In this document: positions 6,014 to 62,989 of the stretch, one piece after another
Position numbering within the stretch: position 1 is the stretch's first letter
How the letters are laid out: each line of letters opens with the position of its first letter
UHGV virus genome: UHGV-0287696
From: a virus
Direction: 5' to 3' (one strand)
DNA: 64,000 bases
Notes under the pieces: model-generated
Databases searched by the model: none
The model's input: the letters and a program-made list of their open reading frames with translations, nothing else
Told to the model about the DNA's origin: nothing
Made by a program: the position numbers and the translations under genes

Positions 6014-6049
6014 CCCTACTCCTCCGGGAGTAGGGTTAATTCTTTTTCC
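6014..6049 (+). terminator. intrinsic terminator (CCCTACTCC stem family)
   Basis: CCCTACTCC-TCCG-GGAGTAGGG followed by a T-rich tract. Confidence 0.6.
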
Positions 6050-6066
6050 ACCTTAGGAGTATTAAA

Positions 6067-6618
6067 ATGTTTCCATCGTCTGAATATTTAACTCATCTGG
6101 CTTACGGTATTCGCCGTGGTTCTGTTTTCCGCACACGTTTAAAGGATATAAATTTCCTGGCTAATTTCTTATTTGATCGTTTGTGGGATGGCGATAGTGT
6201 TTACAAAAAGATCACCGTAACACAACTTTATTCCCTTATAGCAGCATCTGAAATTGTGCCTACAGATATTCGTCGATTTAAACGACAGCATAACGGGGAG
6301 GTTACAATCAGCTTTCTTGATCGTTCTCCTATTACCGTTGAAATCGATGATCGTATTGACGCTAATAGTGAAATGTCTGGTTGGAAGATTCTGTTTGATT
6401 GTGGCAATCGTTATGCGGTACTTGGTTCCTCTGATGAGCGCGACTTCCCATTCGACAAACCCTACTACTACCTCAGTGAAGACGATTTCCCGGATAAAGA
6501 ATCCAACATCTTTTTAAACGGAGACACAGTTTACTTCATTTTTCGTACCTGGAACGATGTTGCTGCTATGATTGCTCAAGGCGTCATCGATTACCGTAAA
6601 CTAGAAGTCGACATTTAA
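6067..6618 (+). CDS. hypothetical protein
   Basis: ORF with AGGAG-tattaaa-ATG start context and a terminator downstream. Confidence 0.5.
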   Translation: MFPSSEYLTHLAYGIRRGSVFRTRLKDINFLANFLFDRLWDGDSVYKKITVTQLYSLIAASEIVPTDIRRFKRQHNGEVTISFLDRSPITVEIDDRIDANSEMSGWKILFDCGNRYAVLGSSDERDFPFDKPYYYLSEDDFPDKESNIFLNGDTVYFIFRTWNDVAAMIAQGVIDYRKLEVDI

Positions 6619-6629
6619 AATAAAAGCTA

Positions 6630-6661
6630 CCCTACTCCCGAAGGAGTAGGGTAATCTTTTT
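6630..6661. terminator. bidirectional terminator (CCCTACTCC stem family)
   Basis: CCCTACTCC-CGAA-GGAGTAGGG between convergent genes, T-rich on both sides. Confidence 0.6.
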
Positions 6662-7284
6662 TAGTTAACTAACCCGTTAGCTTTAAGAATCTCTAACATT
6701 TGGTTGTTTAACTCTTTTAATTTTTTGTTCTCTTCTGTCAACGCAGCAACTTTCTCACCTAATGGAATAGATTCACGAATTTTATTTTTTCGTGCCGCTT
6801 CCATCTGCAAGTGCTGTTCCTCCGTCACCTTCCCCTCATACTCGAGCGTTGTAATTTCAACTTTCGGCTCAATCCCTAGTGTATGCGTGAGAATATCTGA
6901 AACGTCTTTTGTTATAGACGACACTTTCACGTAATCCGGTACCAGTGCCAAATCTACCACTAACACATTTCGTTGATACGTGATCCCGGATAAACCTGGG
7001 TATGATTCCAGGTAGGTGTCAGGTATGTATACAACTTGACCGTCCCGAGATTTAAATGTCAGAATCGACGCACTAACATTCGCATCTGCTAAATATTCTT
7101 CACGTCCTAGCCCTACTGGCTGGTAATACGAGTTATAAACGTCAATATTCTGACGTACTAAATCTGGGAAGGTACGTGACGCTTCTACCGTATAAATGAC
7201 CGTCTCGGCTAAAGTAAATGGTGTTTTTACTTTAAACAGTCCCGTGGTGTTGACTGGTACCTGGAGTGGTAAACGCGTAGCCAT
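6661..7284 (-). CDS. hypothetical protein (possible virion protein)
   Basis: Minus-strand ORF with GAGGAG upstream, coupled to the upstream minus-strand gene. Confidence 0.45.
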   Translation of the reverse strand: MATRLPLQVPVNTTGLFKVKTPFTLAETVIYTVEASRTFPDLVRQNIDVYNSYYQPVGLGREEYLADANVSASILTFKSRDGQVVYIPDTYLESYPGLSGITYQRNVLVVDLALVPDYVKVSSITKDVSDILTHTLGIEPKVEITTLEYEGKVTEEQHLQMEAARKNKIRESIPLGEKVAALTEENKKLKELNNQMLEILKANGLVN

Positions 7285-7287
7285 TCA

Positions 7288-8661
7288 TTACTCCTCGTCT
7301 AACTCGGTGTACCATTTCGCTTTCCGAGACAGGATACGATATTCTACGTTGTCGTATTCAAACACCCAGAAGTAGTTATCAGGGTCGGCCTCATCGACCA
7401 GTTTTACAACATCTAAGCTGGTTTGATACGGGTGGTATTCTTCCGCAGCAATAAGTGCCTGGAAGAATAACGCCAACCATTCAGTCGTTGTTTTCGACAT
7501 ACGCGCAATATCAGGGTTAGTCGTCGCAATTAACGCATAATCCGGGATAGTTTCGTGTAAGGTCGCTTTCCGCGTATCGTTTTCCGGCCCACTGATTACA
7601 ACACAGTTTAATGATTTATAAACCGTTGGTAAGTCAGTTACGTCTGTTGTAGGTTTACTGATCGTTTTAGTATTTCTTTCTGCTACCGTCTGGTCTGCCC
7701 ATTCTCCAAACCGACTGATAGCTTTGACCCAGAAATCATATGGAAGGATGGGGGAATAAAGCGCCGCCACATCTTCCTCATTGGGTATCCCACGAATTTT
7801 CCATCCAGGGACAATTGTAAATTTCGTGGTAGTGAAAATTTCGGGAAATACTTTTACCCCGATAGGGACAGTAAAGCTAGAATTAGCGAGAATATGTTCT
7901 CGCAACGCTTGCTTTATTTTCGTTGGGTTTTTTCCCGCACGTCCGTAGATAATAACCGACATTGGGACAACTAGGGTAGACTCGTAGTTTTCTTGATCGT
8001 GCCAAGTATAGTAGTTGGTTTGGATGGCGGTATAAGGAAACCCTGCCATTAACTCATTGATTTTCTTATGGTGTTCGGTAAGGTTAAACCCTTCCATCGC
8101 CTTTTCAACGACTGACTTGGTCGACAAAAATGTGTCGATTGGTGAAATCGGCATCTGTACTTCGATTTCGAACCCTGTGTAATCTTGATCGAAGTCTTCA
8201 TCCGAGAACCAAACAATGATCTGATTATCTACATCAGTGTCATCTTGTACTTGATCTGCCGTTACTTCATATTTCCAGCTCACCCAACGTGGGAACCAGT
8301 TACTGTTCGTCTGTATCATCGCACCAGACTGAACACCAGAAATGGTTGATTGGAATTGGCCTAATAACAGGCGCTGGAATTCGAGTTCGTCATTTCTCAG
8401 ATTCCCCAAGATGGCTTGCTGGTAAATCCATTGAGAAACGGTTAGAATATGATCAGAAAATTCGGCTGGTACAACAACCGTCTGTTTTTCTCGTTTAGAC
8501 GTAAAAGTCACCAATTGAACTTGCAAATTGGTTTTAGTAAACGTCTGTTTACTCTTCGCGTACGAGAGTGTCAAATCCGACAGCTCGCCCACCGGAGCGG
8601 TGACGCCGTCCTGATTGTCAAACAGTGCCGGTATCTGAATAAAACCTTGTAAGTCTAACAT
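7288..8661 (-). CDS. hypothetical protein (possible virion protein)
   Basis: 457-aa minus-strand ORF with GGAG upstream. Confidence 0.5.
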   Translation of the reverse strand: MLDLQGFIQIPALFDNQDGVTAPVGELSDLTLSYAKSKQTFTKTNLQVQLVTFTSKREKQTVVVPAEFSDHILTVSQWIYQQAILGNLRNDELEFQRLLLGQFQSTISGVQSGAMIQTNSNWFPRWVSWKYEVTADQVQDDTDVDNQIIVWFSDEDFDQDYTGFEIEVQMPISPIDTFLSTKSVVEKAMEGFNLTEHHKKINELMAGFPYTAIQTNYYTWHDQENYESTLVVPMSVIIYGRAGKNPTKIKQALREHILANSSFTVPIGVKVFPEIFTTTKFTIVPGWKIRGIPNEEDVAALYSPILPYDFWVKAISRFGEWADQTVAERNTKTISKPTTDVTDLPTVYKSLNCVVISGPENDTRKATLHETIPDYALIATTNPDIARMSKTTTEWLALFFQALIAAEEYHPYQTSLDVVKLVDEADPDNYFWVFEYDNVEYRILSRKAKWYTELDEE

Positions 8662-8686
8662 AATTAAAAATACTCCGAGGTGAGCA

Positions 8687-9190
8687 ATGGGTTCATTTTT
8701 TAAAGTGCTTCCGTTCTTCCTTCAGATGTTAATGGAAGCATTTAAACCAGGAGAAGGAGAAAACGTATCAAGAGCAAGCAAGATAATGACTTTAATCATC
8801 ACGATCTTGTTGTCGTATTCTGGCTTCGTCTCCTACGCCTATGTACAACAGTTTCACGCGCTCGTTGCAGTGCAGTCTCATGACACTTATATGTCGCAGT
8901 CTTACCAAGAGATGAAACAAGATCGAGATAAACTAAAAGAAGATAATGGGAAGTTATACGACAGGCTCTTCGTTTGCCTCGGCCAGAAACCGCCATATGA
9001 AAGCACGTTTAATTCATCGAAAGCGAGCGGTACGGCGAAGGATCTGTCTTCGACAAAACCAGAAACTCCTGTTAATCCAGCTTCAACACCAGAACAACGT
9101 AAAGAGGCTTCGGCGAGACCTGTTGGCAATTTAAATGCGAACAGCTTTCGACAGGAGATCATAAAGACGCTAACGTCTTCTAAGGAGTGA
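8687..9190 (+). CDS. membrane-anchored protein with coiled-coil region
   Basis: Hydrophobic segment IMTLIITILLSYSGFV followed by a charged helical region. Confidence 0.4.
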   Translation: MGSFFKVLPFFLQMLMEAFKPGEGENVSRASKIMTLIITILLSYSGFVSYAYVQQFHALVAVQSHDTYMSQSYQEMKQDRDKLKEDNGKLYDRLFVCLGQKPPYESTFNSSKASGTAKDLSSTKPETPVNPASTPEQRKEASARPVGNLNANSFRQEIIKTLTSSKE

Positions 9191-9649
9191 TTGATGAAAA
9201 TGCTGTTATTCATCATGATGGTGTTCGTGGGGTTGGTGAGTAATAGCTACGGCGACGAAGTTAAACGTCCAGCTTATAGGCCACTGGAACTTCCTCCTAC
9301 ACCACCAATAATGGTGAATTGGAAAATTGACAATAACGCAATGCGTGAGTATGTTGCGGACGTCAACACCTATGCTTACTACGTTTATGTCTACACCCGA
9401 AATTTAAACCAACAAGCCGTTAAACGTGGCTGGAGCCCACCAATGCTGGCTCCACTTTGTGAGCGTTATGAGTTACCGAAGTTACATGTTGTACCCGAAC
9501 GCTTATCTCTTGACGAAAGCTCTTTAACGCCCCAGGAGATTAGCCGTGACCTATCGCGTAAACTCAATAATTTGTTGTGGAATTACCGTTCCGACCGTCA
9601 GACACTACTCGATTCGTACAACCAATACTTGACATCGTGTTTGTACTGA
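9191..9649 (+). CDS. secreted protein (signal peptide)
   Basis: N-terminal MMKMLLFIMMVFVGLVSNSYG; start immediately after the upstream stop; terminator downstream. Confidence 0.4.
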   Translation: MMKMLLFIMMVFVGLVSNSYGDEVKRPAYRPLELPPTPPIMVNWKIDNNAMREYVADVNTYAYYVYVYTRNLNQQAVKRGWSPPMLAPLCERYELPKLHVVPERLSLDESSLTPQEISRDLSRKLNNLLWNYRSDRQTLLDSYNQYLTSCLY

Positions 9650-9653
9650 CACC

Positions 9654-9696
9654 CCCTCCTGTACCCATTCGTGGTACAGGAGGGTCTTTCTTTTTA
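9654..9696 (+). terminator. intrinsic terminator
   Basis: 12-bp stem CCCTCCTGTACC / GGTACAGGAGGG followed by TCTTTCTTTTT. Confidence 0.6.
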
Positions 9697-9739
9697 ACGT
9701 TTGCAACTATTTTAATGTAGACTAACAGGAGAATTCAAC

Positions 9740-10474
9740 ATGACCTACCCAAAAATTGTCACCCCGTACACACCGACGCTGGTTATTGGCGCTGATGCTG
9801 AAACCAAATCATTACGTCCCGATGCTTATCTGTTAAGTGCAGGTTTAGTGGCTTTTGACGTCCCTACATTGAAAATGGTAGGTTCCTCATACATCAGGAT
9901 CGATCCTAACGATCCTAAAGCAAAAGCCATTTTCCACGAAGACCCACAAACCGTTGGTTGGTGGGAAGGTAAAGGCGAACCCGAATACGCACCGTCTCGT
10001 GAAGCCTATGCGGAAGCATGGGGTGGGACAACAGCATTGCCAGACGCGCTGTGGGCGATGCAAAAATGGCTCGGGGAGATCACCGCAAAACATGAGTTTG
10101 TGATTACCATGCGTGGTCCTGACTTCGATGCGCCGATTTTCATGAACGCATTCGCACAATGTGATATTCCGCCAGGGAAGTTCCGTAAATTCAGTGCACT
10201 GGATAGCGATCGCACCGCAGAACGTTTAGCCTTTGCATTTGGGTTCGAGCCTGACCTAACCGTAGAGCAAATTTACTGGACACGCGGTAAGCCCGCTTTT
10301 GAGCACCACGCAATGTGGGATGCAGCAAAAGAAGCCTACACCACGGCACGTATTTACCACCTCGCTTTGGTCACTCGCCAATACGGGTTTGAACGCGCCA
10401 AAGCCTGTCACGAAGAACTGAAAACGGGCGAGTATGTTGCGCCGCAGATTCGTGATCAATTAACCAGGGATTAA
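9740..10474 (+). CDS. DEDDh-type 3'-5' exonuclease (DnaQ/DexA-like)
   Basis: Exo I-like LVIGADAETKS and Exo III-like HHAMWDA motifs. Confidence 0.5.
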   Translation: MTYPKIVTPYTPTLVIGADAETKSLRPDAYLLSAGLVAFDVPTLKMVGSSYIRIDPNDPKAKAIFHEDPQTVGWWEGKGEPEYAPSREAYAEAWGGTTALPDALWAMQKWLGEITAKHEFVITMRGPDFDAPIFMNAFAQCDIPPGKFRKFSALDSDRTAERLAFAFGFEPDLTVEQIYWTRGKPAFEHHAMWDAAKEAYTTARIYHLALVTRQYGFERAKACHEELKTGEYVAPQIRDQLTRD

Positions 10475-10476
10475 GA

Positions 10477-11997
10477 ATGAAGAACGTTGATGTTGCAGTA
10501 ATTTACACGGATGGTAGCCATTTGACCTCCCCGCTCGGTACAGGAGCGGGGATTCATGGATACTTATTTAATCGTGAAGCGATTGAGGATGGTCGGGTTT
10601 ACCGCCATCCCTCTATTCCCGAGGGGATTACGACGTCAGGATACCGCCAGATAAACAAGGATGAAAAACTTCCACCTTTACCTGAAACCGTGGAGTTTAT
10701 TGACGGTGTTGTCCCTGTACCAAAAATGTCACACTCCGACGTTGCAGAACTCGTGGCTTTCCTGACCGTTTTCGAACACGCACCTTTCGTTGCCAAAAAC
10801 TATGTTATCTATATCGACGCCTCTTACGTTGTCAACACGTATAACGATTGGATTGATGGTTGGGCTGCGCGCGGCTGGCGTCGTGCAGACGGTACGCCTA
10901 TTGCGAACTTGGAATTAATCCAACGGATGTGGGAGGTTAAACAGCGGTTAAAGAAAGAAGGGAAAGGTATTCGTGTCCTTAAAATTAAAGGGCACTCAGG
11001 ACGCTATGGAAACGAGCGTGCCGACGAGTTAGCACGGAAAGGTTCAAGTATTTCGGCTCGAGGTGAGGGGCTAGACTATACACCGTATTGGTCAAAAGAC
11101 GAGATGCCTGAGGAAGAACAGCAACCAGAAGTTGTTGGTGAAGGTGTCAATTTGTCCGCTTTTCCCGATATCTGTGTTACGAAGTTCTGTTACCCGATGG
11201 TGAACGAACCGCATCCCACTGTTACAGTTAACGGTAATAAACTTTATTACATGTTCGGTGGGAACCATGCAAAACAGAAGGACGATATCGTCTTCGTTGG
11301 TAAGTACATTCCAGATGCACAATTCTGCGTAATGTTTACCAAAGAACCGTGGGATAACGTATACGAGTTGGTAAATACCCACTCTGCGAAAGCGTGGGAA
11401 GGGGTGCCCCGTTTACGTCAGTTTGATCCCATCGCCGTTGTTTTTAACTTATTCGTAAAACGTAAGAAGTTCGCAGAAGCCGCAGGTAACGGTATTCCTG
11501 TCGATCGGATGCATTTTAGCGAAGACAAAAACCTGTGGATGTTTGAAGATCTTTCGATTACGCGAATTCTTCGTCCCGCGTTATTGTCTTATCGCTGCAT
11601 TACGATTCGTGATGAGCTTGCAGGTTGGTTACGCGATGCCATGGAGGGGAAAAACTCAGTCGTAATGAACGACATTACTGACCTGCTTTACGATGAGAAA
11701 GGTAAGCCGAAGAAAGACTTTTATCGTAACGTAGATAAAGGTTTTGACGTAACCATCCATATCCCTGGTAGCAAAAACAAGGTTAAAACCATCCTTACTC
11801 GAGGTATCGACATACCGACGCGTACGGAAATCAACCGTATGAAAGAGCCAGAAGGGCGTTTCTACGTGGCGGTACGGCGTCCAGAACGGCAGTATATCGA
11901 GTACGCGTTGGTTTATATTGGGGAAAAATATCATGGGTTGTGGTGTGGCTATTATTCAAACAAACGAATATTGACGGATAAGGAGCTTGAATGCTGA
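10477..11997 (+). CDS. RNase HI-like nuclease with a large C-terminal extension
   Basis: VIYTDGS and WAARGWRRADGTPIANLELIQRMW...KIKGHSGRYGNERADELARKG closely parallel E. coli RNase HI as recalled. About 315 further residues are of unknown function. Confidence 0.65.
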   Translation: MKNVDVAVIYTDGSHLTSPLGTGAGIHGYLFNREAIEDGRVYRHPSIPEGITTSGYRQINKDEKLPPLPETVEFIDGVVPVPKMSHSDVAELVAFLTVFEHAPFVAKNYVIYIDASYVVNTYNDWIDGWAARGWRRADGTPIANLELIQRMWEVKQRLKKEGKGIRVLKIKGHSGRYGNERADELARKGSSISARGEGLDYTPYWSKDEMPEEEQQPEVVGEGVNLSAFPDICVTKFCYPMVNEPHPTVTVNGNKLYYMFGGNHAKQKDDIVFVGKYIPDAQFCVMFTKEPWDNVYELVNTHSAKAWEGVPRLRQFDPIAVVFNLFVKRKKFAEAAGNGIPVDRMHFSEDKNLWMFEDLSITRILRPALLSYRCITIRDELAGWLRDAMEGKNSVVMNDITDLLYDEKGKPKKDFYRNVDKGFDVTIHIPGSKNKVKTILTRGIDIPTRTEINRMKEPEGRFYVAVRRPERQYIEYALVYIGEKYHGLWCGYYSNKRILTDKELEC

Positions 11998-12659
11998 TCG
12001 TTTATAGTGAGGTCTTGTCAAAAGCCCCTCGGTTTTTACAAACTCACTTTATGTATAACGCACGGCAGTATTGGGGCTTTAAAGCCCCTTACTCCGAAGA
12101 TTGGGAAGTTGTGGAAAAGTTAGCATTTGTGTTTTCTCTTTCGTTGTTGTGGGAGATCATTGCACTATACAACGCGGGTTGTGATATCCCGGAGAACGGC
12201 TTTTTCCAACAACACCTATTCCAAAAATTCACAGCATCGGTAGAAAATCATGAAGTGCGCAAGGAGTGTATCGGCTACGCAGAGCATTCTGAAGAATTGA
12301 GAAAGATTTCCAAATTAGTTATCACGCGGACATGGGCTGAATTCGAAACTTACCCCGAAAAAATAATTTGGTTTAATCGTGAACAGTTTATTAAAGAGGC
12401 AGTCAGTCAACATCCCGTTCGATTAATCGTGTTAAAGCCGTCCGATCTTGCCTTACGCCACATCTATTCGTCTCCAGAGGAAATCGTTTTTTCCTCTGGA
12501 ACAACAGATTATGGTATTTTTAAACAAGGCGATTCTTGGATTCTTCCACACGATTTAGACGGGTATTTGCTCAGTAGCGATCAAATACATTCGGGTTATG
12601 ACTCACAGGTGAAGGAGTTTACAGTCGATCCTTTTTTCGCTAAAAATATTCTTAGATAG
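11991..12659 (+). CDS. hypothetical protein
   Basis: ORF with AAGGAG upstream; first gene of a tightly coupled five-gene block. Confidence 0.4.
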   Translation: MLIVYSEVLSKAPRFLQTHFMYNARQYWGFKAPYSEDWEVVEKLAFVFSLSLLWEIIALYNAGCDIPENGFFQQHLFQKFTASVENHEVRKECIGYAEHSEELRKISKLVITRTWAEFETYPEKIIWFNREQFIKEAVSQHPVRLIVLKPSDLALRHIYSSPEEIVFSSGTTDYGIFKQGDSWILPHDLDGYLLSSDQIHSGYDSQVKEFTVDPFFAKNILR

Positions 12660-12695
12660 ATATTATCCAGGTGTAACACCATTGGAGTTATTAAA

Positions 12696-13439
12696 ATGCT
12701 AAAAGTTTATGTCCCTCAATTACAACGTATCAATCCCTCGTTGTTCGAGGGAATCTTTTATAAAATTTGGCCACAATACTTCAATGAACATTTGAAGGAC
12801 CCGAAGTGGTCAACCGTACAAGGAGAATTCTTTTATACCGCACAGACGGCTTGCACAATCGTCTTTACTCGTCTCATCTCCGAAGTTATCGAGGCTGTCA
12901 ATACCAACCGAAACTTTGACCTTCGCGGCGTAGTCGAAATAGATCTCTCAGGGATCTTCGATAACTACGATTGCGATGACGCTGTATTCGAACATTTCTC
13001 TTCTGAAGATGTCTGGGAAGCCGTTTATCAATGGCTAGAATACTACATGAATTTTCTATTCTCTCCAGAGATGTTAGAAAGTTTCAATAAAGCACTCTTC
13101 CCCATTTATAACGACTTACTCAACGTTAAACAAACAAAGAACCTCGTTGGTTTCTGGTTTTCGATTTACGACGCCGAATGTACGTTGTGGGAAAAAGAAT
13201 TGATTGCTTACGGGATAGAACGTGGAGACTATGTTGAGCTTCACTGTGGTTTCTGGCCATTCAGTGACTACGAGAACGCACGGCTTGGTATCTCACGATT
13301 GTGGTCGTTTTACCTCTGTGAAGCTACGGGCGTTATTTACCTTGAAGACAGCGGAGCACAAATCCCTAATGGTGCTGTTGTAACTTACTGCCAGATTCGA
13401 GAAGATCGGGGTCGGGCAATTTATCAGGAATATGCATAA
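12696..13439 (+). CDS. hypothetical protein
   Basis: ORF with GGAG upstream. Confidence 0.4.
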   Translation: MLKVYVPQLQRINPSLFEGIFYKIWPQYFNEHLKDPKWSTVQGEFFYTAQTACTIVFTRLISEVIEAVNTNRNFDLRGVVEIDLSGIFDNYDCDDAVFEHFSSEDVWEAVYQWLEYYMNFLFSPEMLESFNKALFPIYNDLLNVKQTKNLVGFWFSIYDAECTLWEKELIAYGIERGDYVELHCGFWPFSDYENARLGISRLWSFYLCEATGVIYLEDSGAQIPNGAVVTYCQIREDRGRAIYQEYA

Positions 13440-13981
13440 TGAAAATACTTATCGATTTCTCACTCAGCGAGTCACGGGGTAAATTAAACAAACTGTTAAG
13501 TGGGATGCGTAGCCGCGTTGCGTTTGAACTGCACGACGCGATAGCAGTACATGAGAACAAGATTTCTGAAGAACACAGTGGGGTCGAAATTACTATCCTG
13601 GATTCAGAAGCGATGGTGAATAATCTCATTGAACAGTTAGAACGAAAAATCCGTTCTGCCATGACATACCCACATTTGGTGCGGGTAACTGATCCTGATA
13701 CGGATATTCACCTGATTCTTGAGAAAGCCTTTCTACATGCCGCGCATTACTTACAGAATAATGCTCCAGATACCCTCGACGAAGTGTATGTCGCCATATT
13801 GCAGCGACAATCTTCAACGACGGATATAATAGACACAACATGTTGGAGCGATATTCTTACCAACGAAACAATGTCCCGTATCCGGGATATTTTCCTTGAG
13901 ACACTCGGGTTAGTTGAGAAAATCTGCCATGCTGAGCTCATCTACCTGTCATCAAAATACGGTCAACCTAAAGGAGTATAA
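13439..13981 (+). CDS. hypothetical protein
   Basis: TAATG start-stop overlap with the upstream gene. Confidence 0.4.
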   Translation: MKILIDFSLSESRGKLNKLLSGMRSRVAFELHDAIAVHENKISEEHSGVEITILDSEAMVNNLIEQLERKIRSAMTYPHLVRVTDPDTDIHLILEKAFLHAAHYLQNNAPDTLDEVYVAILQRQSSTTDIIDTTCWSDILTNETMSRIRDIFLETLGLVEKICHAELIYLSSKYGQPKGV

Positions 13982-13983
13982 TC

Positions 13984-14508
13984 GTGGATATTTTAATTCA
14001 ACTTCGTAAGAAAACAACCATTGCCACACCGATAGCGCTAGAGGAGAAAATCTCTGGCGCGGTTGCACGCAAGCTCTGTGGTGCTCATGGCTTTAGCGAC
14101 CATCAGGAGCGGGTCGTTACTGTCGCCACATTACACAACTTACGACACACAGTACATTACTGTTTAGTTGACAACGTCACCATCACTCTTGATGATAACG
14201 TAAATGTCGACCAACTGCGACGCGAAATTGTCCACAAGATCGAGGCTTACAATAGACGTTTCGATCGGGCGTGTGCACGTTTAACTAATGACGAGGCACT
14301 ACGAAAACGTTTGAAACTTGAAATTGAGTATGCGGCGCAACGTTACGGGATTGGCGGTACCGAACCGTGCCTGACTGAACAAGAAATCACGTTAGCAATC
14401 GAGGTTTATACCACTCTCTGCTGCGCCATCCTAAAAGAGACCAACCACGAAATTACAAAAGCGTTGTTAAACACCGCAGACAAAATCACCCCAATTTTAG
14501 GACAATAA
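13984..14508 (+). CDS. hypothetical protein
   Basis: GTG start 2 nt after the upstream stop; AAGGAG upstream. Confidence 0.4.
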   Translation: MDILIQLRKKTTIATPIALEEKISGAVARKLCGAHGFSDHQERVVTVATLHNLRHTVHYCLVDNVTITLDDNVNVDQLRREIVHKIEAYNRRFDRACARLTNDEALRKRLKLEIEYAAQRYGIGGTEPCLTEQEITLAIEVYTTLCCAILKETNHEITKALLNTADKITPILGQ

Positions 14509-14509
14509 A

Positions 14510-14998
14510 ATGAACGTAAATGATATTATCAATCTTAGTAAAAGTGATATTGTGCACGAATTTCTCAATCATGGTGCGCGTGTAAGAAAAGAAATTGAAG
14601 AAAAGTTGACCCCAATGGTTGCTTCCACTCCTTGGATGGCAGGATACGCCGCTGCCTACTTCAGTTGCCAGAGCGGAAAAGCATACATAGCTAACCTGTT
14701 TGATTTCTTCAATCCATCAAACGACCACATAACAGAAACAGACGTTCGACAACGCCTTCGCGATTGCCGGTATCAGTTCTTAAGAAATGTTACTGATGCG
14801 TACAATTTAGAGCAATTTCCTACACCGATTGTTCCCTATACAGAACCGGAATGGGAAAATTTTTATAGACGAATTTGGATTGGTGGGTCTTACGTGGCAG
14901 ATATAATGGAAATCATCGAACGTAGCGAAAACCAACTTGCTCTGCAACTATGGGAGTGGTTAAAAGCCAATTATCCTGATTACGTCAAAATCGACTAA
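14510..14998 (+). CDS. hypothetical protein
   Basis: Coupled ORF; terminator follows. Confidence 0.4.
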   Translation: MNVNDIINLSKSDIVHEFLNHGARVRKEIEEKLTPMVASTPWMAGYAAAYFSCQSGKAYIANLFDFFNPSNDHITETDVRQRLRDCRYQFLRNVTDAYNLEQFPTPIVPYTEPEWENFYRRIWIGGSYVADIMEIIERSENQLALQLWEWLKANYPDYVKID

Positions 14999-15004
14999 TA
15001 CACA

Positions 15005-15036
15005 CCCTAGCTTCGGCTAGGGTTACTTTATTTTTA
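15005..15036 (+). terminator. intrinsic terminator
   Basis: CCCTAGC-TTCG-GCTAGGG followed by TTACTTTATTTTT. Confidence 0.55.
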
Positions 15037-15057
15037 ACCATTTTAGGAGAATAAACC

Positions 15058-15984
15058 ATGTATTTGTACAAAAGTAAAAAAGTAAAAGGTATTAAAGACT
15101 GCCTTAGACAAATGGGGTGTCAGCATCTAGAAAATGTCATGGAAGAAAACCGAATAAAGGAAAATCCTGTCTCGAAATGGATAAAAAAGAATCGTAACCA
15201 TTTAACCAATACCTTTATACCCTACGACGCTGAGTTAGGTCTCAAAGATCCCCGTTCCCTTCACGCACAAACATTAGCAATTGGATGGCTATACGGTGGT
15301 GCTTCCTTAATATCCAACCAAGCACTTAGAGAACTTGTTTTCGAAACTGAGATGCCCAGTAAATTCCCTGAAGAATGGTTGGACTTTATTCCTACTTGGA
15401 CTGTGGCAATCGACGTAGGTAAAGAGGATGAGACTTTCTTTCTCGGCTATCGAAAAAACGGGAAGAGAAGGTTTATTATAATTGCTACAAATACTGATTA
15501 CGGGTTAACAGAAGGCGTTACCACAATTGCCACTTGTTCGTTAGAGCTTCGTAGTGCAGGAAACGGGCTTGTGGAAATCGACTATGCCGACGGTGTGGAG
15601 AACGAACAAGAAAAGATGCTATGGTTATCTCTGGCCAAAGCCGCTACTTCGATGATATTTCTGTGCACGCTAATCCCGCCCAATTACAGGGAGTCTTTTA
15701 ATGATATTAAGTTCAAGGAAATCAAAAAGAACGGTAGTATTAGTTACGACGTTAAACCTCGTGAACGCGATGTTAAGATAGATATCACGCCAGGACAAGT
15801 GAATTATCTAAAAGGGTTTAACACTGACTTGAAAACCATGCAGGGTATCAAACATGCTAAGGCTGCCCACATCCGTCGCGCACACTGGCGCAGATATTGG
15901 GTCGGCCCTAGAAATGGTGAAAGAAAAAGAAAACTTTGTTGGATTCCACCTACATTTGTCCGTGGCTACGTACCCCACAATTAA
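15058..15984 (+). CDS. hypothetical protein, tandem paralog A (C-terminal HIRRAHWRRYW motif)
   Basis: AGGAG upstream; shares GW.YG and C-terminal AAHIRRAHW.R.W.G blocks with the next gene. Confidence 0.5.
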   Translation: MYLYKSKKVKGIKDCLRQMGCQHLENVMEENRIKENPVSKWIKKNRNHLTNTFIPYDAELGLKDPRSLHAQTLAIGWLYGGASLISNQALRELVFETEMPSKFPEEWLDFIPTWTVAIDVGKEDETFFLGYRKNGKRRFIIIATNTDYGLTEGVTTIATCSLELRSAGNGLVEIDYADGVENEQEKMLWLSLAKAATSMIFLCTLIPPNYRESFNDIKFKEIKKNGSISYDVKPRERDVKIDITPGQVNYLKGFNTDLKTMQGIKHAKAAHIRRAHWRRYWVGPRNGERKRKLCWIPPTFVRGYVPHN

Positions 15985-16008
15985 GCTAAAGTGTTTAGGA
16001 GTATTAAA

Positions 16009-16908
16009 ATGACAACGAATAATAGACTTTACGGGAAAGCGCTAAGACGCATGAGCGAACAAATAGAAAAGGCACACCAAACAATTCACGGATTAGATCA
16101 GTGCCGCTTTATTCGGTTCATTAACGAGCATAAACGTCAAATACCCGTAACGTTTATACCAGTTAAAGATCCGACCTATCGTGAGTATGGCGTTACCGAA
16201 CAGATCCCCAGACTGATTAAGCAGTCTCTGGGACTAGGATGGCAATACGCTGCTGTTGAAATCATCTCGGATGAAGAACTGATGGCGCTCTTAGCAAAAA
16301 CTGAGAGACTAAAAAATATCCCGTACTTCTGGATAGAAACCATCCCATCATTTACTTTCTCGGTTACTGTAAATCTCGACGAAAGTCCAATCACGTTATT
16401 TATCGGAAGACGTCTTTACGAAGGTGAAGAAGTTCTCTTTGTGATGTCATGCGAAGAACATGACGAGTCGGTATACATGGAGTTTGAGATTTACACGATC
16501 GATAAAAGTAATGATGATTTCGTGGAGTTAAAGCCGCTCCTTACTTCGGTTAAGGAGAATCAACGACTACTCGACGCGGTCTACATCGGGCTATATCTTT
16601 CATCACGAATTAAGCGAACCGAACGCGAGAAGAAAGAATTTCGCGGAAGGTCCATTCGTTATGTTCCTGATACAGAAATTCGCCCACGTAGTGAAGCAGT
16701 CGTTTTAGATGTAAGTCCGGTACAATGGGAAGATATAGAGCAGCAACGCAAGGAAGGACACGAGGTTTGTTTGGCGATTTATTGTGCCGCACATATCCGT
16801 CGTGCGCATTGGAAGCGTGTATGGTGTGGTAAAATGTCAGAAATGCGCTGGCGCGAATGGCGATGGATAGCGCCGAGTTACATTTCTGGATTTTATCGTG
16901 GGAAATAA
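16009..16908 (+). CDS. hypothetical protein, tandem paralog B (C-terminal HIRRAHWKRVW motif)
   Basis: AGGAG-tattaaa-ATG at 16009 (ORF track starts at an upstream GTG, 15991); paralogous to the previous gene. Confidence 0.5.
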   Translation: MTTNNRLYGKALRRMSEQIEKAHQTIHGLDQCRFIRFINEHKRQIPVTFIPVKDPTYREYGVTEQIPRLIKQSLGLGWQYAAVEIISDEELMALLAKTERLKNIPYFWIETIPSFTFSVTVNLDESPITLFIGRRLYEGEEVLFVMSCEEHDESVYMEFEIYTIDKSNDDFVELKPLLTSVKENQRLLDAVYIGLYLSSRIKRTEREKKEFRGRSIRYVPDTEIRPRSEAVVLDVSPVQWEDIEQQRKEGHEVCLAIYCAAHIRRAHWKRVWCGKMSEMRWREWRWIAPSYISGFYRGK

Positions 16909-16926
16909 ATAGTTTACCCCTAGACC

Positions 16927-16966
16927 GTGTGGTCTAGGGGTAACTTTACTTTTTTATTTTTTGTTT
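16927..16966. terminator. bidirectional terminator
   Basis: CCCCTAGACC-GTGT-GGTCTAGGGG between convergent genes. Confidence 0.55.
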
Positions 16967-17709: not shown

Positions 17710-17807
17710 TCTAAAACCTCGGATTATAAGTCAGGGTTACATAGTAAAGTCTTTTTACAGTTCACCCAAACCTTATGACCGAGACTCTTCCATAAAGGTA
17801 AAGCTCG

Positions 17808-18107: not shown

Positions 18108-18122
18108 TTATCGGAGCGCTAA

Positions 18123-19619: not shown

Positions 19620-19626
19620 ATAGGCT

Positions 19627-19648
19627 CGGGTAGGGTAAACCCTACCCG
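19627..19648 (+). other. stem-loop without U-tract immediately upstream of an RBS
   Basis: CGGGTAGGG-TAAA-CCCTACCCG followed directly by AGGAG and the start of the next gene. Confidence 0.4.
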
Positions 19649-19663
19649 ACCTAAGGAGTCATC

Positions 19664-25970: not shown

Positions 25971-25976
25971 CACCTA

Positions 25977-26014
25977 CCCTACTCCTGACTAGGAGTAGGG
26001 TATTTTCATTTTTT
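25977..26014 (+). terminator. intrinsic terminator (CCCTACTCC stem family)
   Basis: CCCTACTCCT-GACT-AGGAGTAGGG followed by TATTTTCATTTTTT. Confidence 0.6.
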
Positions 26015-27011: not shown

Positions 27012-27025
27012 ATCGGGTATCGGAA

Positions 27026-31143: not shown

Positions 31144-31151
31144 ATAAAAGT

Positions 31152-31200
31152 ACCTACCTCCTTTCGGAGGTAGGTAGACTTTCTTATTTTTTTTTCTTTT
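31152..31200. terminator. bidirectional terminator (ACCTACCTCC stem family)
   Basis: ACCTACCTCC-TTTC-GGAGGTAGGT with a long T tract; between convergent genes. Confidence 0.6.
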
Positions 31201-33970: not shown

Positions 33971-33990
33971 GGGGGTAGTTTCCTACCCCC
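33971..33990 (-). terminator. hairpin terminator or attenuator downstream of the giant gene
   Basis: GGGGGTAG-TTTC-CTACCCCC; on the minus strand it is followed by GTTTTTTAGA, just before the next minus-strand gene. Confidence 0.45.
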
Positions 33991-52077: not shown

Positions 52078-52503
52078 ATGAAAAACGAATTATTTAAAGA
52101 CCCGTTTGTTGCGATGATGGTCGCTGTCAGAGCAGCAAGTGTTGCTGAAGATTTAAACCGTCTCCTCATCGATGAAGCATACTTGCGCGAGCAAAGCTCT
52201 ATGTATTTAGAAAAAGAAATCCTGGAATTCCCGGGCAACATGAAAGCGTTGGTTGAAACGCTTAGAGACGAAAAATGGAGAAAAGCACACCCATTGTCCG
52301 AATACATTAATTTATCAATTGAAAAACTAATACCGGAAGTAAAAGCGGATAAAAAACTTTGGGCTAAACTGGATGAATCTGACCGTGAGGTATTAGCAAT
52401 TGTCTTACGTGCAGCCATGATTAATATCGATATAGTAACAGTTGAACTTGCAGGTAACACACAAGGAGATGCAGCTCATGGTCTGGTCAGAACAATTCAT
52501 TGA
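52078..52503 (+). CDS. small hypothetical protein, tandem paralog A
   Basis: AGGAG-tattaa upstream; shares DPF... and KWRKAH blocks with the next ORF. Confidence 0.4.
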   Translation: MKNELFKDPFVAMMVAVRAASVAEDLNRLLIDEAYLREQSSMYLEKEILEFPGNMKALVETLRDEKWRKAHPLSEYINLSIEKLIPEVKADKKLWAKLDESDREVLAIVLRAAMINIDIVTVELAGNTQGDAAHGLVRTIH

Positions 52504-54223: not shown

Positions 54224-54252
54224 GGCGGTCTTATGACCGCCTTATTTTTTTT
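54224..54252 (+). terminator. intrinsic terminator (second of a tandem pair)
   Basis: GGCGGTC-TTAT-GACCGCC followed by TTATTTTTTTTT. Confidence 0.6.
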
Positions 54253-54272
54253 TGATTTCAGGAGATAAAACA

Positions 54273-54830
54273 ATGCAAAACTTATTCGATGGTTATCCCG
54301 TGGCTCAAGAAAAGCCGAATACAGAACGGGCCGTGGCGCTTCCTAACGTCATGAACCGTACAGAAGTCATTAGCCATCTTAACCAGATCGGTGAAATCTT
54401 TACGTTGTCTATGCAAGCCACTTTAGGTGATGCGTTTCCACACATCGCGGGCTGGCCTGCTGAAACGATCCCACACACTATCAACGGCTACCAGCGTTTC
54501 TTAACCGAAATACGTAGCAGTTCAGTCGGTAATGTCGTCGCCGGTTACGTTATCCGTTTCAAACAGCTCTTACGGATTGAGTTCGGTGAAGATGTATTAG
54601 AAGCGTTGGAATCCGAATTGGTTAGCTTGCACAACAACGAAATTATACGTAACGAAAAAGGAAATGGCGACACAGAACTAACACTGTGGCGTGTTGCTTA
54701 TCCCAGCGACACCACCAACACCCCACCCACCACGTTCGATCTACTCTCTACGTTCCTGCTGTTAATGCAGATGAAAAACTTAATTATTCGTTCTTCTGCT
54801 CGTAAACAACTGGCGCAAGAAGAAAAATAA
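54273..54830 (+). CDS. hypothetical protein
   Basis: ATG at 54273 with AGGAG upstream (ORF track starts at 54252). Confidence 0.4.
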   Translation: MQNLFDGYPVAQEKPNTERAVALPNVMNRTEVISHLNQIGEIFTLSMQATLGDAFPHIAGWPAETIPHTINGYQRFLTEIRSSSVGNVVAGYVIRFKQLLRIEFGEDVLEALESELVSLHNNEIIRNEKGNGDTELTLWRVAYPSDTTNTPPTTFDLLSTFLLLMQMKNLIIRSSARKQLAQEEK

Positions 54831-54833
54831 AAG

Positions 54834-54877
54834 CTACCTACCTCCTTGACGGAGGTAGGTAAACTTATTTTTTTTGC
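54834..54877. terminator. bidirectional terminator (CTACCTACCTCC stem family)
   Basis: TACCTACCTCC-TTGAC-GGAGGTAGGTA with T tracts on both strands, between convergent genes. Confidence 0.6.
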
Positions 54878-55753
54878 TTAACGAAGCTGATTTGCCATCT
54901 GTTCGTCGGACACAGAACGATAACCGCCAGCCGTAGCATCGACGTCTGGGTTGATACCGTTGGTCTGTTGAGACGGAGTAAGCCACAGTTTGCGTTCGTA
55001 AGGACGCAGACCGTAAAGCTTCATGCGCTCCAGTTCTTTCTGAGCTGCCTGCATCGGACCCCAACCTGTCCATTGCTGGGAGGTGAAGGTGATAGACAGT
55101 TCGTTGGTCTGAGGACCGGTGTTCGGGTCACGTTCACCGATATCTTGACCGTTAGACTCAGGAGCCATGTTCGTCAGCCACCACGCGTTCTGCGGTTTAC
55201 GCTGATACGCATCCGGTTCGAAATACAGCACGGTCATGCTGTACATATCCGGCAGGTGATCTGGCACATTCGGGTTGATTGCCGCCAGACCAGGGTGGCC
55301 TGTGTGCGGGTCACAAACACCGTAAACCAACCACGCCCAGAGCATGTTCTGATACACTTTACCCAGTTTATCCGGGGTCGTGTGCGTAACCGAAGACAGT
55401 GCTTCCGTTACCAGACCAGCTTCGTACTGAACGCGGTTGTTACGTCCCTGCTGAGTCTGTACGTACTCAGCACTCAGGGATTTGTCCAGGCCGGTAATCG
55501 TGGTGTGAACTTCGATGAAGGATTTGATTGCCTGACGCCACAGTTGTGGGTTCGGCATGTAATCAACCCAACGAGGGAATTCCATCACACGTGCGATTAC
55601 GTTACGACGCAGACGGTGGGCGTTGGTAACGAACTTACCAACCTGACCGACCGGACCGTTTTGACCAGACGAGAAGGGGTTAACCATATCGTACTGGCCG
55701 CCATCGACGTGGAGGCCCTGGTCAGGTAAAATCATGCGTTCTTTAATAGACAT
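54878..55753 (-). CDS. abundant virion protein, tail-tube-like candidate
   Basis: Start 3 nt after the stop of the upstream 685-aa gene; GGAGAG upstream; high-expression codon usage. The function is inferred from gene order only. Confidence 0.4.
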   Translation of the reverse strand: MSIKERMILPDQGLHVDGGQYDMVNPFSSGQNGPVGQVGKFVTNAHRLRRNVIARVMEFPRWVDYMPNPQLWRQAIKSFIEVHTTITGLDKSLSAEYVQTQQGRNNRVQYEAGLVTEALSSVTHTTPDKLGKVYQNMLWAWLVYGVCDPHTGHPGLAAINPNVPDHLPDMYSMTVLYFEPDAYQRKPQNAWWLTNMAPESNGQDIGERDPNTGPQTNELSITFTSQQWTGWGPMQAAQKELERMKLYGLRPYERKLWLTPSQQTNGINPDVDATAGGYRSVSDEQMANQLR

Positions 55754-61312: not shown

Positions 61313-61314
61313 TC

Positions 61315-62955
61315 ATGGCCTTAACAACCGACATTATTAATAAGGATCGCGGGTTCCGTGTATGGCGTCCTGAAGAACTCTATGCGCCGGAACGCCCAAC
61401 CGGATACGTACCGAACCCGAAAGATCTGATCGTTAACGATATCACCTCCGGTTTCGATATCGTCATAAGCGTTAACTACGCCAAACCGTCGTGGGAAACC
61501 GAACCGTGGGGCGGTGTAGGGGTGGCTAATCAAGACGGTCGTCTGAACGGACACTACCCACTGCGTAGCGATAAATATCGCGTCTACGTGGATTCTACGA
61601 AGCTCCCGGCAACAATGGTGTTAGATAACGCACTCACCTTTGAAGGACCGGATGTGGACGGGGTGCGCATTTTCCGAGGCAGTAAAGTTGACGACAGTGC
61701 GGAAATACTCTCTGGCTACTACAAAGACGGTAAATTGAAATACACTTACTTACCGGTCCAGACGATTTCTGTCGAGGGTGCAGAGCGTGTCGTTAAACAA
61801 ACGTTACCTGGCGCTTGCTTAGCTGAGGTCGAGAACGGCGAAGAATGTATGTTCGCTGTTTACTCCGACGTCGGTAACGTGGTGCAAATCGGTCACGCAC
61901 ACATTATCAAAACGAACCTGGTAATGCCGCAAGAAACGCCAGCACGCACGGTGTTAGGTATTAAGTTAGTGTCACCGTTCTTGGTAGACAACGACGGCAC
62001 CACACTGACGCTCCCGATCAACATGCCAATCGAGTCTATACCGCTTTGGTGTGATGTTGTTTACAGCGATGGCACAAAACGTCTACCTATCGACCAGGCT
62101 CGTGTTAAATTCAACGGCTTACGTAACGCAGGTTCACACGACACGTTCTACATCGCTTCTAACTCAGGTAACACGCTACCTTGCGTACTGAGCTATAAGT
62201 TATCCAGAGGTGAAACTTACGGAGGTACCGATGTCGTAGGTGACACCATTGTGAAAAACTATACGGCGGTAACAGAGCAGGTCGACGGTGCCTACAGCAT
62301 GAAACTTTTCGTTGTGCCGAGATGGCTGGATGCCACACGCGGTTATCGTCTGGATTTCTTGCTGTATAACCTGACACGCGGTAAAGTTTACGACGCAACC
62401 GCACACGTTAACTACACCACGGGCACGACCTTCGATCCGTTACTGATGGGTGTTAAGCAACGCCTTAACGTTCAGGTCGATATCAGTAAAGTAGACAGTA
62501 AATTCCGTGCGTTTATTCAGTCTCAGTCATTCGCTATTACGCTTGTGAACCCAGGTAACGAGCTGAACTCGAACTTCATTCTGGAATACCTCCCAGACGG
62601 TATGAAGTATGGGGAAAACGTGTGGGCGGAATTTAAATACTCCAACGTCAATTATTCTGAAATCGACGTCAGTAACAAAGTGGCCTCTAAGGCGGAATGG
62701 TTGAAGCTGTTGTACGAACCGATTTATCCGTTGTACGACCGTCGTAATGAATCTGAGCCACCTGAACCAACACACTTCGAAATCCACGTCGGGGGTAAAG
62801 TTTACACCTATAGCGTAGATGAGTGGTTGGATAAAAAGGTTATCGACTACCGCGTACCACTAGACGCTCCGCTAGTGATTCGTTGGATACGTCGCACACC
62901 AACAGATACGTTAAACTTAGCCGCGTCGCCAATGTTGGCGCACCACATCGAATAA
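61315..62955 (+). CDS. hypothetical structural protein (546 aa)
   Basis: Starts 2 nt after the upstream stop. Confidence 0.45.
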   Translation: MALTTDIINKDRGFRVWRPEELYAPERPTGYVPNPKDLIVNDITSGFDIVISVNYAKPSWETEPWGGVGVANQDGRLNGHYPLRSDKYRVYVDSTKLPATMVLDNALTFEGPDVDGVRIFRGSKVDDSAEILSGYYKDGKLKYTYLPVQTISVEGAERVVKQTLPGACLAEVENGEECMFAVYSDVGNVVQIGHAHIIKTNLVMPQETPARTVLGIKLVSPFLVDNDGTTLTLPINMPIESIPLWCDVVYSDGTKRLPIDQARVKFNGLRNAGSHDTFYIASNSGNTLPCVLSYKLSRGETYGGTDVVGDTIVKNYTAVTEQVDGAYSMKLFVVPRWLDATRGYRLDFLLYNLTRGKVYDATAHVNYTTGTTFDPLLMGVKQRLNVQVDISKVDSKFRAFIQSQSFAITLVNPGNELNSNFILEYLPDGMKYGENVWAEFKYSNVNYSEIDVSNKVASKAEWLKLLYEPIYPLYDRRNESEPPEPTHFEIHVGGKVYTYSVDEWLDKKVIDYRVPLDAPLVIRWIRRTPTDTLNLAASPMLAHHIE

Positions 62956-62965
62956 ATATAACAAG

Positions 62966-62989
62966 CCTCCTACCCGAAAGGGTAGGAGG
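62966..62989 (+). other. stem-loop without U-tract immediately upstream of the terminase RBS
   Basis: CCTCCTACCC-GAAA-GGGTAGGAGG followed directly by GAGGAG and the ATG at 63002. Confidence 0.4.

Follow-up and report, generated by a model that had tools for sequence, protein, structure and literature searches.

Terminators that recur through a genome with a conserved stem sequence have been seen experimentally in two Pseudomonas jumbo phages, phiKZ and 201phi2-1. In phiKZ, ONT-cappable-seq mapped 133 termination sites (Putzeys et al. 2024, PMC10914365); 61 mapped terminators share the motif BCCYCCCC-HWWD-GGGRRGG-BYTTATKYYGT, and six regions are bidirectional (PMC10914365). A motif resembling that of phiKZ lies at 59 of the 132 termination sites mapped in 201phi2-1, and eight strong terminators of this phage were active, with significantly different activities, in a terminator-trap reporter in uninfected P. 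chlororaphis; the authors speculate on antitermination (PMC11512511). Here we analyze a family of intergenic hairpins that reuse identical stems at distant sites of a 64,000-nucleotide stretch of the UHGV virus genome UHGV-0287696 (hereafter, the window), and we propose that most of them are the counterpart of these terminators in the enterobacterial branch of Salmonella phage SPN3US and Erwinia phage phiEaH2.

As a megablast search of 7 kb of the window against INPHARED found no near-identical deposited phage, the phage group was identified from protein searches. Judged by its proteins, the window belongs to a nucleus-forming jumbo phage that resembles SPN3US and phiEaH2 and encodes its own multisubunit RNA polymerases (RNAPs). 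RNAP beta-type subunits are encoded at 41154-42773 and 42783-46949, with phiEaH2, Asesino, and SPN3US as nearest relatives; amino acid identity of RNAP beta is 82% to the Erwinia phages Stratton, phiEaH2, and Asesino and 76% to SPN3US. The proteins in the window also include a phiKZ gp181-like virion protein of 2,374 amino acids (aa) and a tail sheath, and gene order is fully collinear with phiEaH2 and SPN3US. Four closer relatives, at ~80-97% nucleotide identity, were found in IMG/VR: R1 (IMGVR_UViG_3300045988_113438), R2 (IMGVR_UViG_3300029126_000001), R3 (IMGVR_UViG_3300045988_078609), and R4 (IMGVR_UViG_3300014543_000002, an incomplete contig).

Recurrence of stem sequences

A preliminary description of the window had listed eight hairpins and claimed that identical stems are reused at distant sites. 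All eight were present where it placed them, and the reuse is far above chance: three hairpins have the stem CCCTACTCC/GGAGTAGGG and two have ACCTACCTCC/GGAGGTAGGT. CCCTACTCC has six copies in the window, every one of them an arm of those three hairpins, against 0.20 expected from dinucleotide shuffles, and ACCTACCTCC has four copies against 0.02. Enumeration of all perfect inverted repeats gave longer stems than first listed, namely 11 bp at 6628-6653 (TACCCTACTCC), 12 bp at 25975-26002, 10 bp at 19626-19649, and 11 bp at both 31151-31176 and 54835-54861 (TACCTACCTCC). It also gave further family members at 4475-4504 (TACCCCTTAC), 9654-9684 (CCCTCCTGTACC), 15004-15023 (ACCCTAGC), and 16914-16943 (TTACCCCTAGACC).

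Because the 5' arms are nearly G-free and their effective alphabet is correspondingly smaller, we also applied a stricter null in which positions were permuted within each 5' arm, preserving the G-poor composition (16 intergenic hairpins; 5,000 permutations). Four pairs of hairpins have a 9-mer or longer word in common, compared to 0.06 expected, and none of the 5,000 permutations reached four. Stems with CTAC/GTAG number 8 against 1.7 expected, and TA steps within stems number 20 against 5.7. Over the window as a whole, CCTAC is ~20-fold enriched within hairpins, which hold 8 of its 59 copies in 0.62% of the sequence. As these counts exceed both nulls, the family is real and nonrandom, and a chance or composition artifact is ruled out. 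The whole-window word counts proposed in the preliminary description thus came out in its favor, as did its view that the hairpins are related by stem sequence and not by structure alone.

The reuse of one word as both arms of many terminator hairpins in a genome has a parallel in the DNA uptake sequences of Neisseria and Haemophilus, which are placed as inverted pairs in terminators, also occur singly, and are selected for uptake. CCCTACTCC differs from them in that it is found solely as hairpin arms (six of six copies) and has no known DNA-level function.

Terminator-like anatomy

Most of the hairpins are built and placed like intrinsic terminators. They begin 4-10 nt past the upstream stop codon and have perfect stems of 7-13 bp with folding free energies (dG) of -12.6 to -23.2 kcal/mol. 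After a spacer of 2-3 nt comes a T-rich tract, typically interrupted as yTTTaTTTT; from tail position +4 to +12, T is present in 11-15 of 17 tails per position, which is at least 71% at all but one. When a U-tract was defined as at least 6 T in a 9-nt window no more than 4 nt from the stem on the appropriate strand, 12 of the 16 hairpins had one. The T-tail is on the plus strand only at 4475, 6014, 9654, 15004, 25975, and 51943, and on the minus strand at 33971, past the large minus-strand virion gene. T-tracts are present on both strands at all four convergent gene junctions (6628, 16914, 31151, and 54835), and also at 54224, between two plus-strand genes. The family hairpins folded with their flanks gave z-scores of -3.3 to -6.5 against shuffles (6014; 6628, at -6.1 and -6.5 on its two strands; and 62966, at -5.7).

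The typical 5' arm is a nearly G-free run of C, T, and A, roughly (C)TACC-Y-AC-YTCC; the loop is 4-6 nt and often UNCG or GNRA, and the complementary 3' arm is purine-rich and begins GGAG. One family hairpin is written as CCCUACUCC. G and C are segregated between the arms in 14 of the 16 intergenic hairpins (10 C-first and 4 G-first), compared to 3.4 expected for random pair orientation and to 8 of 25 coding-region hairpins of the window, which served as an internal control (p = 0.001 versus intergenic). Ten of the 16 are C-first with at most one G in the 5' arm. Since a perfect inverted repeat presents an identical 5' arm whichever strand is read, such a stem is C-first in both transcripts, which suits bidirectional use.

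The individual hairpins, with roles as predicted from anatomy and gene context, are as follows.

4475..4504, plus strand: family-like, predicted terminator hairpin; TACCCCTTAC, 10-nt loop, GTAAGGGGTA, tail CTTTTATTTTCATT; 5 nt past the stop of open reading frame (ORF) 3961-4470, with clade-specific ORFs downstream
6014..6035, plus strand: predicted unidirectional terminator; CCCTACTCC-tccg-GGAGTAGGG, dG -15.4, tail TTAATTCTTTTT; UNCG loop in sense orientation; 8 nt past the stop of ORF 5070-6005
6628..6653, both strands: predicted bidirectional terminator; TACCCTACTCC-cgaa-GGAGTAGGGTA, A-tract upstream and T-tract downstream; separates convergent ORFs 6067-6618 (plus) and 6661-7284 (minus)
9654..9684, plus strand: predicted unidirectional terminator; CCCTCCTGTACC(CA)-ttcg-(TG)GGTACAGGAGGG, dG -23, tail TCTTTCTTTTT
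15004..15023, plus strand: predicted unidirectional terminator; ACCCTAGC-ttcg-GCTAGGGT, tail TACTTTATTTTT; followed by two clade-specific ORFs
16914..16943, both strands: predicted bidirectional terminator; TTACCCCTAGACC-gtgt-GGTCTAGGGGTAA; convergent ORFs 15991-16908 (plus) and 16954-17709 (minus)
19626..19649, between two plus-strand genes: G-first hairpin; TCGGGTAGGG-taaa-CCCTACCCGA
25975..26002, plus strand: predicted unidirectional terminator; TACCCTACTCCT-gact-AGGAGTAGGGTA, tail TTTTCATTTTTT; 4 nt past the stop of ORF 25311-25970, followed by five clade-specific ORFs
31151..31176, both strands: predicted bidirectional terminator; TACCTACCTCC-tttc-GGAGGTAGGTA; convergent ORFs 30313-31143 (plus) and 31201-31764 (minus)
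33971..33990, minus strand: predicted terminator; GGGGGTAG-loop-CTACCCCC, then GTTTTTTAG on the minus strand; downstream of the 2,374-aa minus-strand virion gene
46957-46975, just 3' of the RNAP beta gene: hairpin without U-tract; GGGTGGG-tcgct-CCCACCC
54835..54861, both strands: site D, predicted bidirectional terminator; TACCTACCTCC-ttgac-GGAGGTAGGTA; convergent ORFs 54252-54830 (plus) and 54878-55753 (minus)
62966..62989, plus strand: site E, hairpin without U-tract; CCTCCTACCC-gaaa-GGGTAGGAGG; 3 nt upstream of the Shine-Dalgarno sequence (SD) of the terminase large-subunit gene

We put the probability at roughly three in four that these hairpins are intrinsic terminators for the phage RNAPs, bidirectional at convergent junctions. 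They are read as uni- or bidirectional terminators because they lie near stop codons, mostly carry interrupted T-tracts, and have A/T tracts on both sides at convergent junctions. The phage's own multisubunit RNAPs would stop at the hairpin and U-tract, and at convergent junctions a C-first perfect inverted repeat set between an A-tract and a T-tract would act in both directions. The preliminary description had spoken of terminator hairpins; this agrees with the anatomy of most, but of the eight that it listed, 19626 and 62966 lack the canonical form of a terminator on the gene strand.

As no transcriptome for the clade was found in the searchable literature, we turned to a sequence-only test of loop orientation, using the unidirectional tetraloop hairpins of the window, phiEaH2, SPN3US, and phiKZ. 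Stable UNCG or GNRA loops are in the sense orientation, as defined by the U-tract, in 27 cases and antisense in 2 (p = 1.6e-6), a bias that points to selection at the RNA level. A sense bias would be equally expected of RNA stability elements, and one alternative is that the hairpins protect 3' ends or are nuclease sites, for example for the phage RNase H-like ribonuclease encoded at 10477-11997. The presence of that gene and the four hairpins with no sense-strand U-tract (19626, 30252, 46957, and 62966) are consistent with such a role. However, 12 of the 16 hairpins have a U-rich tract at the right distance, and perfect stems of 8-13 bp are too short for RNase III-type substrates. Elements of like architecture in phiKZ and 201phi2-1, moreover, coincide with mapped primary 3' ends and read reduction (PMC10914365, PMC11512511). 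We therefore regard processing or stability as very unlikely to be the general role of the family. No curated RNA family matched at gathering score anywhere in the window (Rfam 15), and no tRNA or tmRNA was found in it, which disposes of a known RNA family or tRNA-related element. A promoter reading of the CTAC words found no support either, as no sigma-70-type promoter-like site adjoins the hairpins in the part searched (window 1-20000).

The nearest experimentally described elements are the conserved-sequence terminators of phiKZ and 201phi2-1, of which the window family would be a clade-specific version. Like the window's phage, these are Chimalliviridae-type jumbo phages with two multisubunit RNAPs, one virion and one nonvirion. 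They likewise have many terminators per genome with a common stem sequence, and bidirectional copies at convergent genes. The likeness extends to a pyrimidine-rich, near-G-free 5' arm, a purine-rich 3' arm, a CTCC-loop-GGAG core, loops of ~4 nt that are often UUCG, and an interrupted, TTAT-like T-tract. The same hairpin pipeline run on phiKZ recovered the stems CCCTCCC, GCCTCCC, and GCCCTCCC, each kind followed by TTAT(G) tails. The window's word is not that of phiKZ (TACC-Y-AC-YTCC, which has a TA step, against CCYCCCC), the window stems are longer, at 9-13 bp, and they fall into discrete exact subfamilies (CCCTACTCC and TACCTACCTCC here; ACCCACTCC in phiEaH2). The terminators of phiKZ and 201phi2-1 were mapped by their 3' ends; those of the window's clade are predicted from sequence.

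Several points weigh against reading the family as terminators of this kind. The literal phiKZ consensus has no match in the window at up to three mismatches, compared to five in 50 kb of phiKZ as a positive control; membership of the phiKZ motif in the literal sense is thus ruled out, and the kinship, as judged from these comparisons, is one of architecture and not of sequence identity. The four hairpins named above have no U-tract on the sense strand and probably have roles other than termination. The terminator reading does not account for the preference for TA steps (CTAC/GTAG); nor, by our estimate from standard parameters, do nearest-neighbor energies account for TA over AT, AA, or TT steps. 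An identical 9-bp stem at nonorthologous loci of different genera is not obviously the product of selection on structure only. For arm asymmetry, E. coli yielded too few hairpins to serve as a control (2 in 50 kb under a strict hairpin-plus-tail filter). Finally, a literature search found no transcript 3'-end data for this phage or its genus-level relatives, and termination in vivo is something we infer from the anatomy and from phiKZ and 201phi2-1.

As the architecture is the same and the literal consensus has no match, we consider the window family a version, peculiar to its lineage, of an already known type of element. Conserved-sequence terminators as such are already known from phiKZ and 201phi2-1 (PMC10914365, PMC11512511); what would be new is their presence beyond those two Pseudomonas phages, in the enterobacterial SPN3US/phiEaH2 branch, with a different word. 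The same architecture with a different word also makes the C-first/G-last stem look like a general trait of termination by phage multisubunit RNAPs rather than a peculiarity of phiKZ. The motif also offers a means of annotating transcription units in the clade's many unannotated jumbo-phage genomes and could serve as a source of compact bidirectional terminators.

Conservation, loop inversion, and possible copying of the stems

The preliminary description had called for a comparison with the terminators of related phages and of the host. The stems proved to be multicopy in related phage genomes and at chance level in bacterial ones. In IMG/VR, 60 stretches contain an exact CCCTACTCC-N4-6-GGAGTAGGG hairpin. 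It has six copies each in R1 and R2, five in R3, and at least three in R4, whose contig is incomplete; phiEaH2 has three and SPN3US two, all at loci nonorthologous to those of the window. Dozens of related viral contigs of roughly 100-250 kb carry exact hairpins two to six times per genome, and TACCTACCTCC hairpins occur one to three times per genome in seven contigs. Protein homology to the window's phage group was found at 60 of 70 such loci. In bacteria (185,579 species, 596 Gb), the CCCTACTCC hairpin occurs as 44 scattered singletons, compared to ~26 expected by our estimate, and none of the 44 record titles names an Enterobacterales taxon. Because the bacterial copies are only scattered singletons near chance, mimicry of a host element is excluded.

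Other variants of the stem are confined to other lineages: ACCCACTCC...GGAGTGGGT has four copies in phiEaH2 and three to four in two other contigs of similar size, with none in R1-R4 or the window. The whole phiEaH2 genome has 51 terminator-like hairpins; by our count, ~20 of them are in a (C)TACC(Y)ACTCC family that predominates among its 17 hairpins with tails on both sides. A second phiEaH2 stem family, (A/T)GGAGACC-ttcg-GGTCTCC(T/A), is found at several unidirectional terminators (for example at genome positions 21271, 60733, 86801, and 92249); none was noticed in the window.

All 16 hairpin sites are filled in R1-R4 with orthologous flanks, and the main junction sites are filled in phiEaH2 and SPN3US as well. 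Nonorthologous copies have in common only the stem (9-12 bp) and generic A/T tracts, and the downstream sequence they share is limited to T-tracts and ribosome-binding site (RBS) context. The suggestion of a spreading small repeat element, also made in the preliminary description, does not survive these observations. A multicopy palindrome with an identical core is what an autonomous mobile repeat of the miniature inverted-repeat transposable element (MITE) or repetitive extragenic palindromic (REP) type would look like. Against this, there is no insertion polymorphism at any of the 16 sites among the four relatives, nothing is conserved past the stem and functional A/T tracts, no target-site duplications were seen, and the positions are tied to stop codons 4-10 nt upstream. 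With every site filled, a recently mobile repeat is ruled out, and we consider an autonomous mobile repeat extremely unlikely.

The stems are always perfect, and where they change they do so by double substitutions without an unpaired intermediate. Thus, in R3 and R4, TCGGGTAGGG becomes TAGGGTAGGG at 19626 and GGGGGTAG becomes GGGGGTGG at 33971 (GGGGGCA in phiEaH2); at 51943, two pairs are changed among relatives. The stem at 4475 is kept in R1 and R2 and reads CCCCTAATCC in R3 and R4, that at 6014 is the same in R1-R4, and at 15004 both stem and loop are invariant across R1-R4. Between genera, the orthologs at 6628 are CTACCTACTCC in both phiEaH2 and SPN3US, the 9654 ortholog in SPN3US is TCCCTCTTACC-ttcg, and those at 16914 are CTACCCACTCC in phiEaH2 and TACCCACTCCC in SPN3US. 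The site D stems, compared by direct reading because a MAFFT alignment had the phiEaH2 sequence out of register, are TACCT-AC-CTCC in the window, TACCT-CT-CTCC in SPN3US, and CCT-CA-CTCC in phiEaH2, with two central pairs changed on both arms. Such double substitutions between genera, here and at site E, keep the structure intact and count in favor of a function of the RNA. At 31151 the stem has been replaced relative to phiEaH2 (CGAGTAGCCC) and SPN3US (CGAGTACCCC), with the flank ATAAAAGT retained.

Loops behave differently, often being the exact reverse complement of the loop of a close relative (tccg/cgga, cgaa/ttcg, cgaaaa/ttttcg, atta/taat, taatc/gatta, tttc/gaaa, aatc/gatt). Across the window and R1-R4 there are seven exact and four near-exact flips at 7 of the 16 sites (4475, 6014, 6628, 19626, 25975, 31151, and 33971), with stems and flanks collinear. 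R3 and R4 form a flip pair at 4475 (aatc and gatt), the 6014 loop is flipped to cgga in R4, and the loops at 19626 flip among relatives as atta/taat and taatc/gatta; loops at 6628 read cgaa, ttcg, ttct, cgaaaa, or ttttcg. The distribution of the flips is homoplasious: at 31151, for example, the window, R2, and R4 have tttc, and R1 and R3 have gaaa. These flips were seen in consensus assemblies of independent samples, although mixed loop orientations in the population or library artifacts at palindromes could contribute.

Template switching within inverted repeats homogenizes their arms and inverts their spacers (PMC5941160, PMC8794818). Our observations resemble quasipalindrome template switching (Ripley 1982 as cited in PMC5941160; Monttinen and Loytynoja 2022, PMC8794818) in the perfect arms that are kept, the double "compensatory" changes without intermediates, and the exact loop inversions. 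As judged from the sequences, the loop flips bear the signature of recurrent template switching within the DNA palindrome, or of its flip-flop. The published work describes a general mechanism (in rRNA, proteobacterial inverted repeats, and T4 rII), whereas here it would be recurrent on jumbo-phage terminators in five genomes, an unusually clean natural case in which template switching leaves the palindromes of terminators intact.

Three observations also suggest copying from locus to locus: a ~50-nt module at a second locus in R3 and R4 that resembles site D, flank included, with its loop flipped; the replacement of the 31151 stem with the flank kept; and lineage-specific expansions of subvariants. 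Under our preferred reading of the hairpins as intrinsic terminators, two forces would account for the reuse of stems: selection for arm polarity and composition, a constraint common to phiKZ, and DNA-level copying and homogenization via template switches inside one palindrome or from one to another. How much each force contributes is again something that we infer.

Alternatively, the stem words (TACC...CTCC/GGAG...GGTA) may be recognized as sequence, by a noncanonical phage RNAP or by a termination, antitermination, 3'-end-binding, or export factor, which would be compatible with their being terminators. Exact 9-11 bp stems persist at nonorthologous loci in several genera (three copies in phiEaH2, two in SPN3US, and five to six in R1-R3), which hints that structure is not the only constraint; CTAC/GTAG and TA steps are commoner than arm composition would give, and the CTCC-loop-GGAG core is common to phiKZ stems. 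On the other hand, orthologous stems drift between genera by compensatory changes with no obviously invariant position, site E reading TAC, TCT, or ACC and site C being entirely different between genera, and G-first hairpins of the opposite polarity also occupy terminator positions (33971, for example). The lineage-specific subvariants are what copying predicts, and template switching together with subvariant expansion offers a route to homogenization with no reader protein, for which no candidate was identified. The eight 201phi2-1 terminators, moreover, were active, and differed, in a terminator trap in the uninfected host (PMC11512511), which suggests that a phage factor is not strictly required. 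Recognition of the stem sequence is therefore unlikely in our view, and it is quite unlikely that nucleus-forming jumbo phages in general use a sequence-dependent termination code read by a phage RNAP or dedicated protein. If they did, each clade would have coevolved its own word (CCYCCCC/GGGRRGG in phiKZ), and terminators would be regulatory checkpoints and not passive hairpins. The exact stems and their natural compensatory variants are testable elements for whether divergent polymerases or a factor read the stem sequence.

The hairpins that depart from terminator anatomy have histories of their own. At 19626 only the minus strand carries a T-rich tail, and the plus-strand side of the hairpin adjoins the SD of the next gene; its role on the gene strand is uncertain. 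A phiEaH2 hairpin at genome position 114144, GGGCGGG-gaaa-CCCGCCC, lies directly 3' of the orthologous gene, gp139, and has a sense T-tail; if it is the counterpart of 19626, an orthology taken from position, then either the sense U-tract has been lost in the window clade or the hairpin serves there against antisense transcription. At 62966, 3 of 10 core pairs are changed on both arms across genera and none is broken, and the loop is always GNRA or UUCG, sense-oriented and never flipped. This hairpin is a conserved RNA structure that may be a 5' untranslated region, stability, or attenuation element rather than a terminator. At 46957, the loop TCGCT is invariant in R1-R4, phiEaH2, and SPN3US and never flips, SPN3US has a compensatory stem (GGGCGGG/CCCGCCC), and the fold with flanks is no better than shuffles (z = -0.8). 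On this pattern it is probably a loop-specific RNA or protein-binding element, separate from the terminators.

Gene cassettes and neighboring structures

Hairpins of the family lie beside genes peculiar to the clade. ORFs without a phiEaH2 or SPN3US homolog directly adjoin them in the order 4475, two ORFs, 6014, one ORF, 6628; likewise, two clade-specific ORFs lie between 15004 and 16914, whose stems both contain CCCTAG. We found hairpins at 7 of 14 boundaries of clade-specific blocks, compared to 7 of 42 conserved-gene junctions (p = 0.028). Terminator modules may be duplicated when accessory gene cassettes insert at the ends of transcription units.

A related possibility has precedent in T4-like phages, in which promoter-early stem-loops (PeSLs) are documented (Arbiol et al. 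2010, PMC2839356; Comeau et al. 2014, PMC4122927). On this model, the hairpins would be short patches of homology for the insertion, deletion, or swapping of cassettes, and their identity would come from coduplication. Both PeSLs and the window family are repeated, sequence-conserved terminator stem-loops of a large virulent phage, beside variable accessory genes, and the bracketing of clade-specific ORFs by related stems (4475/6014/6628, 15004/16914, and 25975 before five ORFs), the boundary counts above, and the duplicated ~50-nt module of R3 and R4 all fit. The association is a modest one, however, and would be expected in any case, as new genes are best tolerated at the ends of transcription units. 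Indels among close relatives are away from hairpins (ORF 13984-14508 is absent in R3, and ORF 27881-28201 is absent in R1 and R3), and seven hairpins lie between conserved core genes. A PeSL is a cassette of terminator and early sigma-70 promoter with a longer conserved sequence, whereas the hairpins here share 9-12 bp of stem and generic A/T tails, with no promoter half detected beside them in window 1-20000 and many copies between core genes. We regard a role as recombination modules as possible but, on balance, doubtful, and continue to favor intrinsic termination.

Four blocks of the window without phiEaH2 or SPN3US homologs (4537-6618, 13984-16908, 26034-28201, and 52078-52503) are bounded or subdivided by family hairpins and behave like hyperplastic regions within an otherwise collinear core. 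The 10-mer CCTAAAGGAG occurs directly upstream of start codons four times on the plus strand (4520, 13967, 26017, and 52060), twice as CCCTAAAGGAG right after terminator T-tracts (the 4475 and 25975 modules). This 10-mer may mark a favored context for the start of translation or be a piece of a duplicated terminator-RBS module. The tetranucleotide CTAG is scarce in the window as a whole, with 55 copies compared to ~247 expected from base composition, and 7 of the 55 are inside terminator stems (15004, 16914, and 51943).

Separate from the family, a 57-nt composite hairpin at 1944-2009 (dG -29.5, z = -7.9) holds in its 3' arm the SD (AGGAGAG) of ORF 2010-2255. It is kept in R1-R4, phiEaH2, and SPN3US, with a compensatory change from AGCTCTC/GAGAGCT to AGCACTC/GAGTGCT, and is a candidate translational-control structure.

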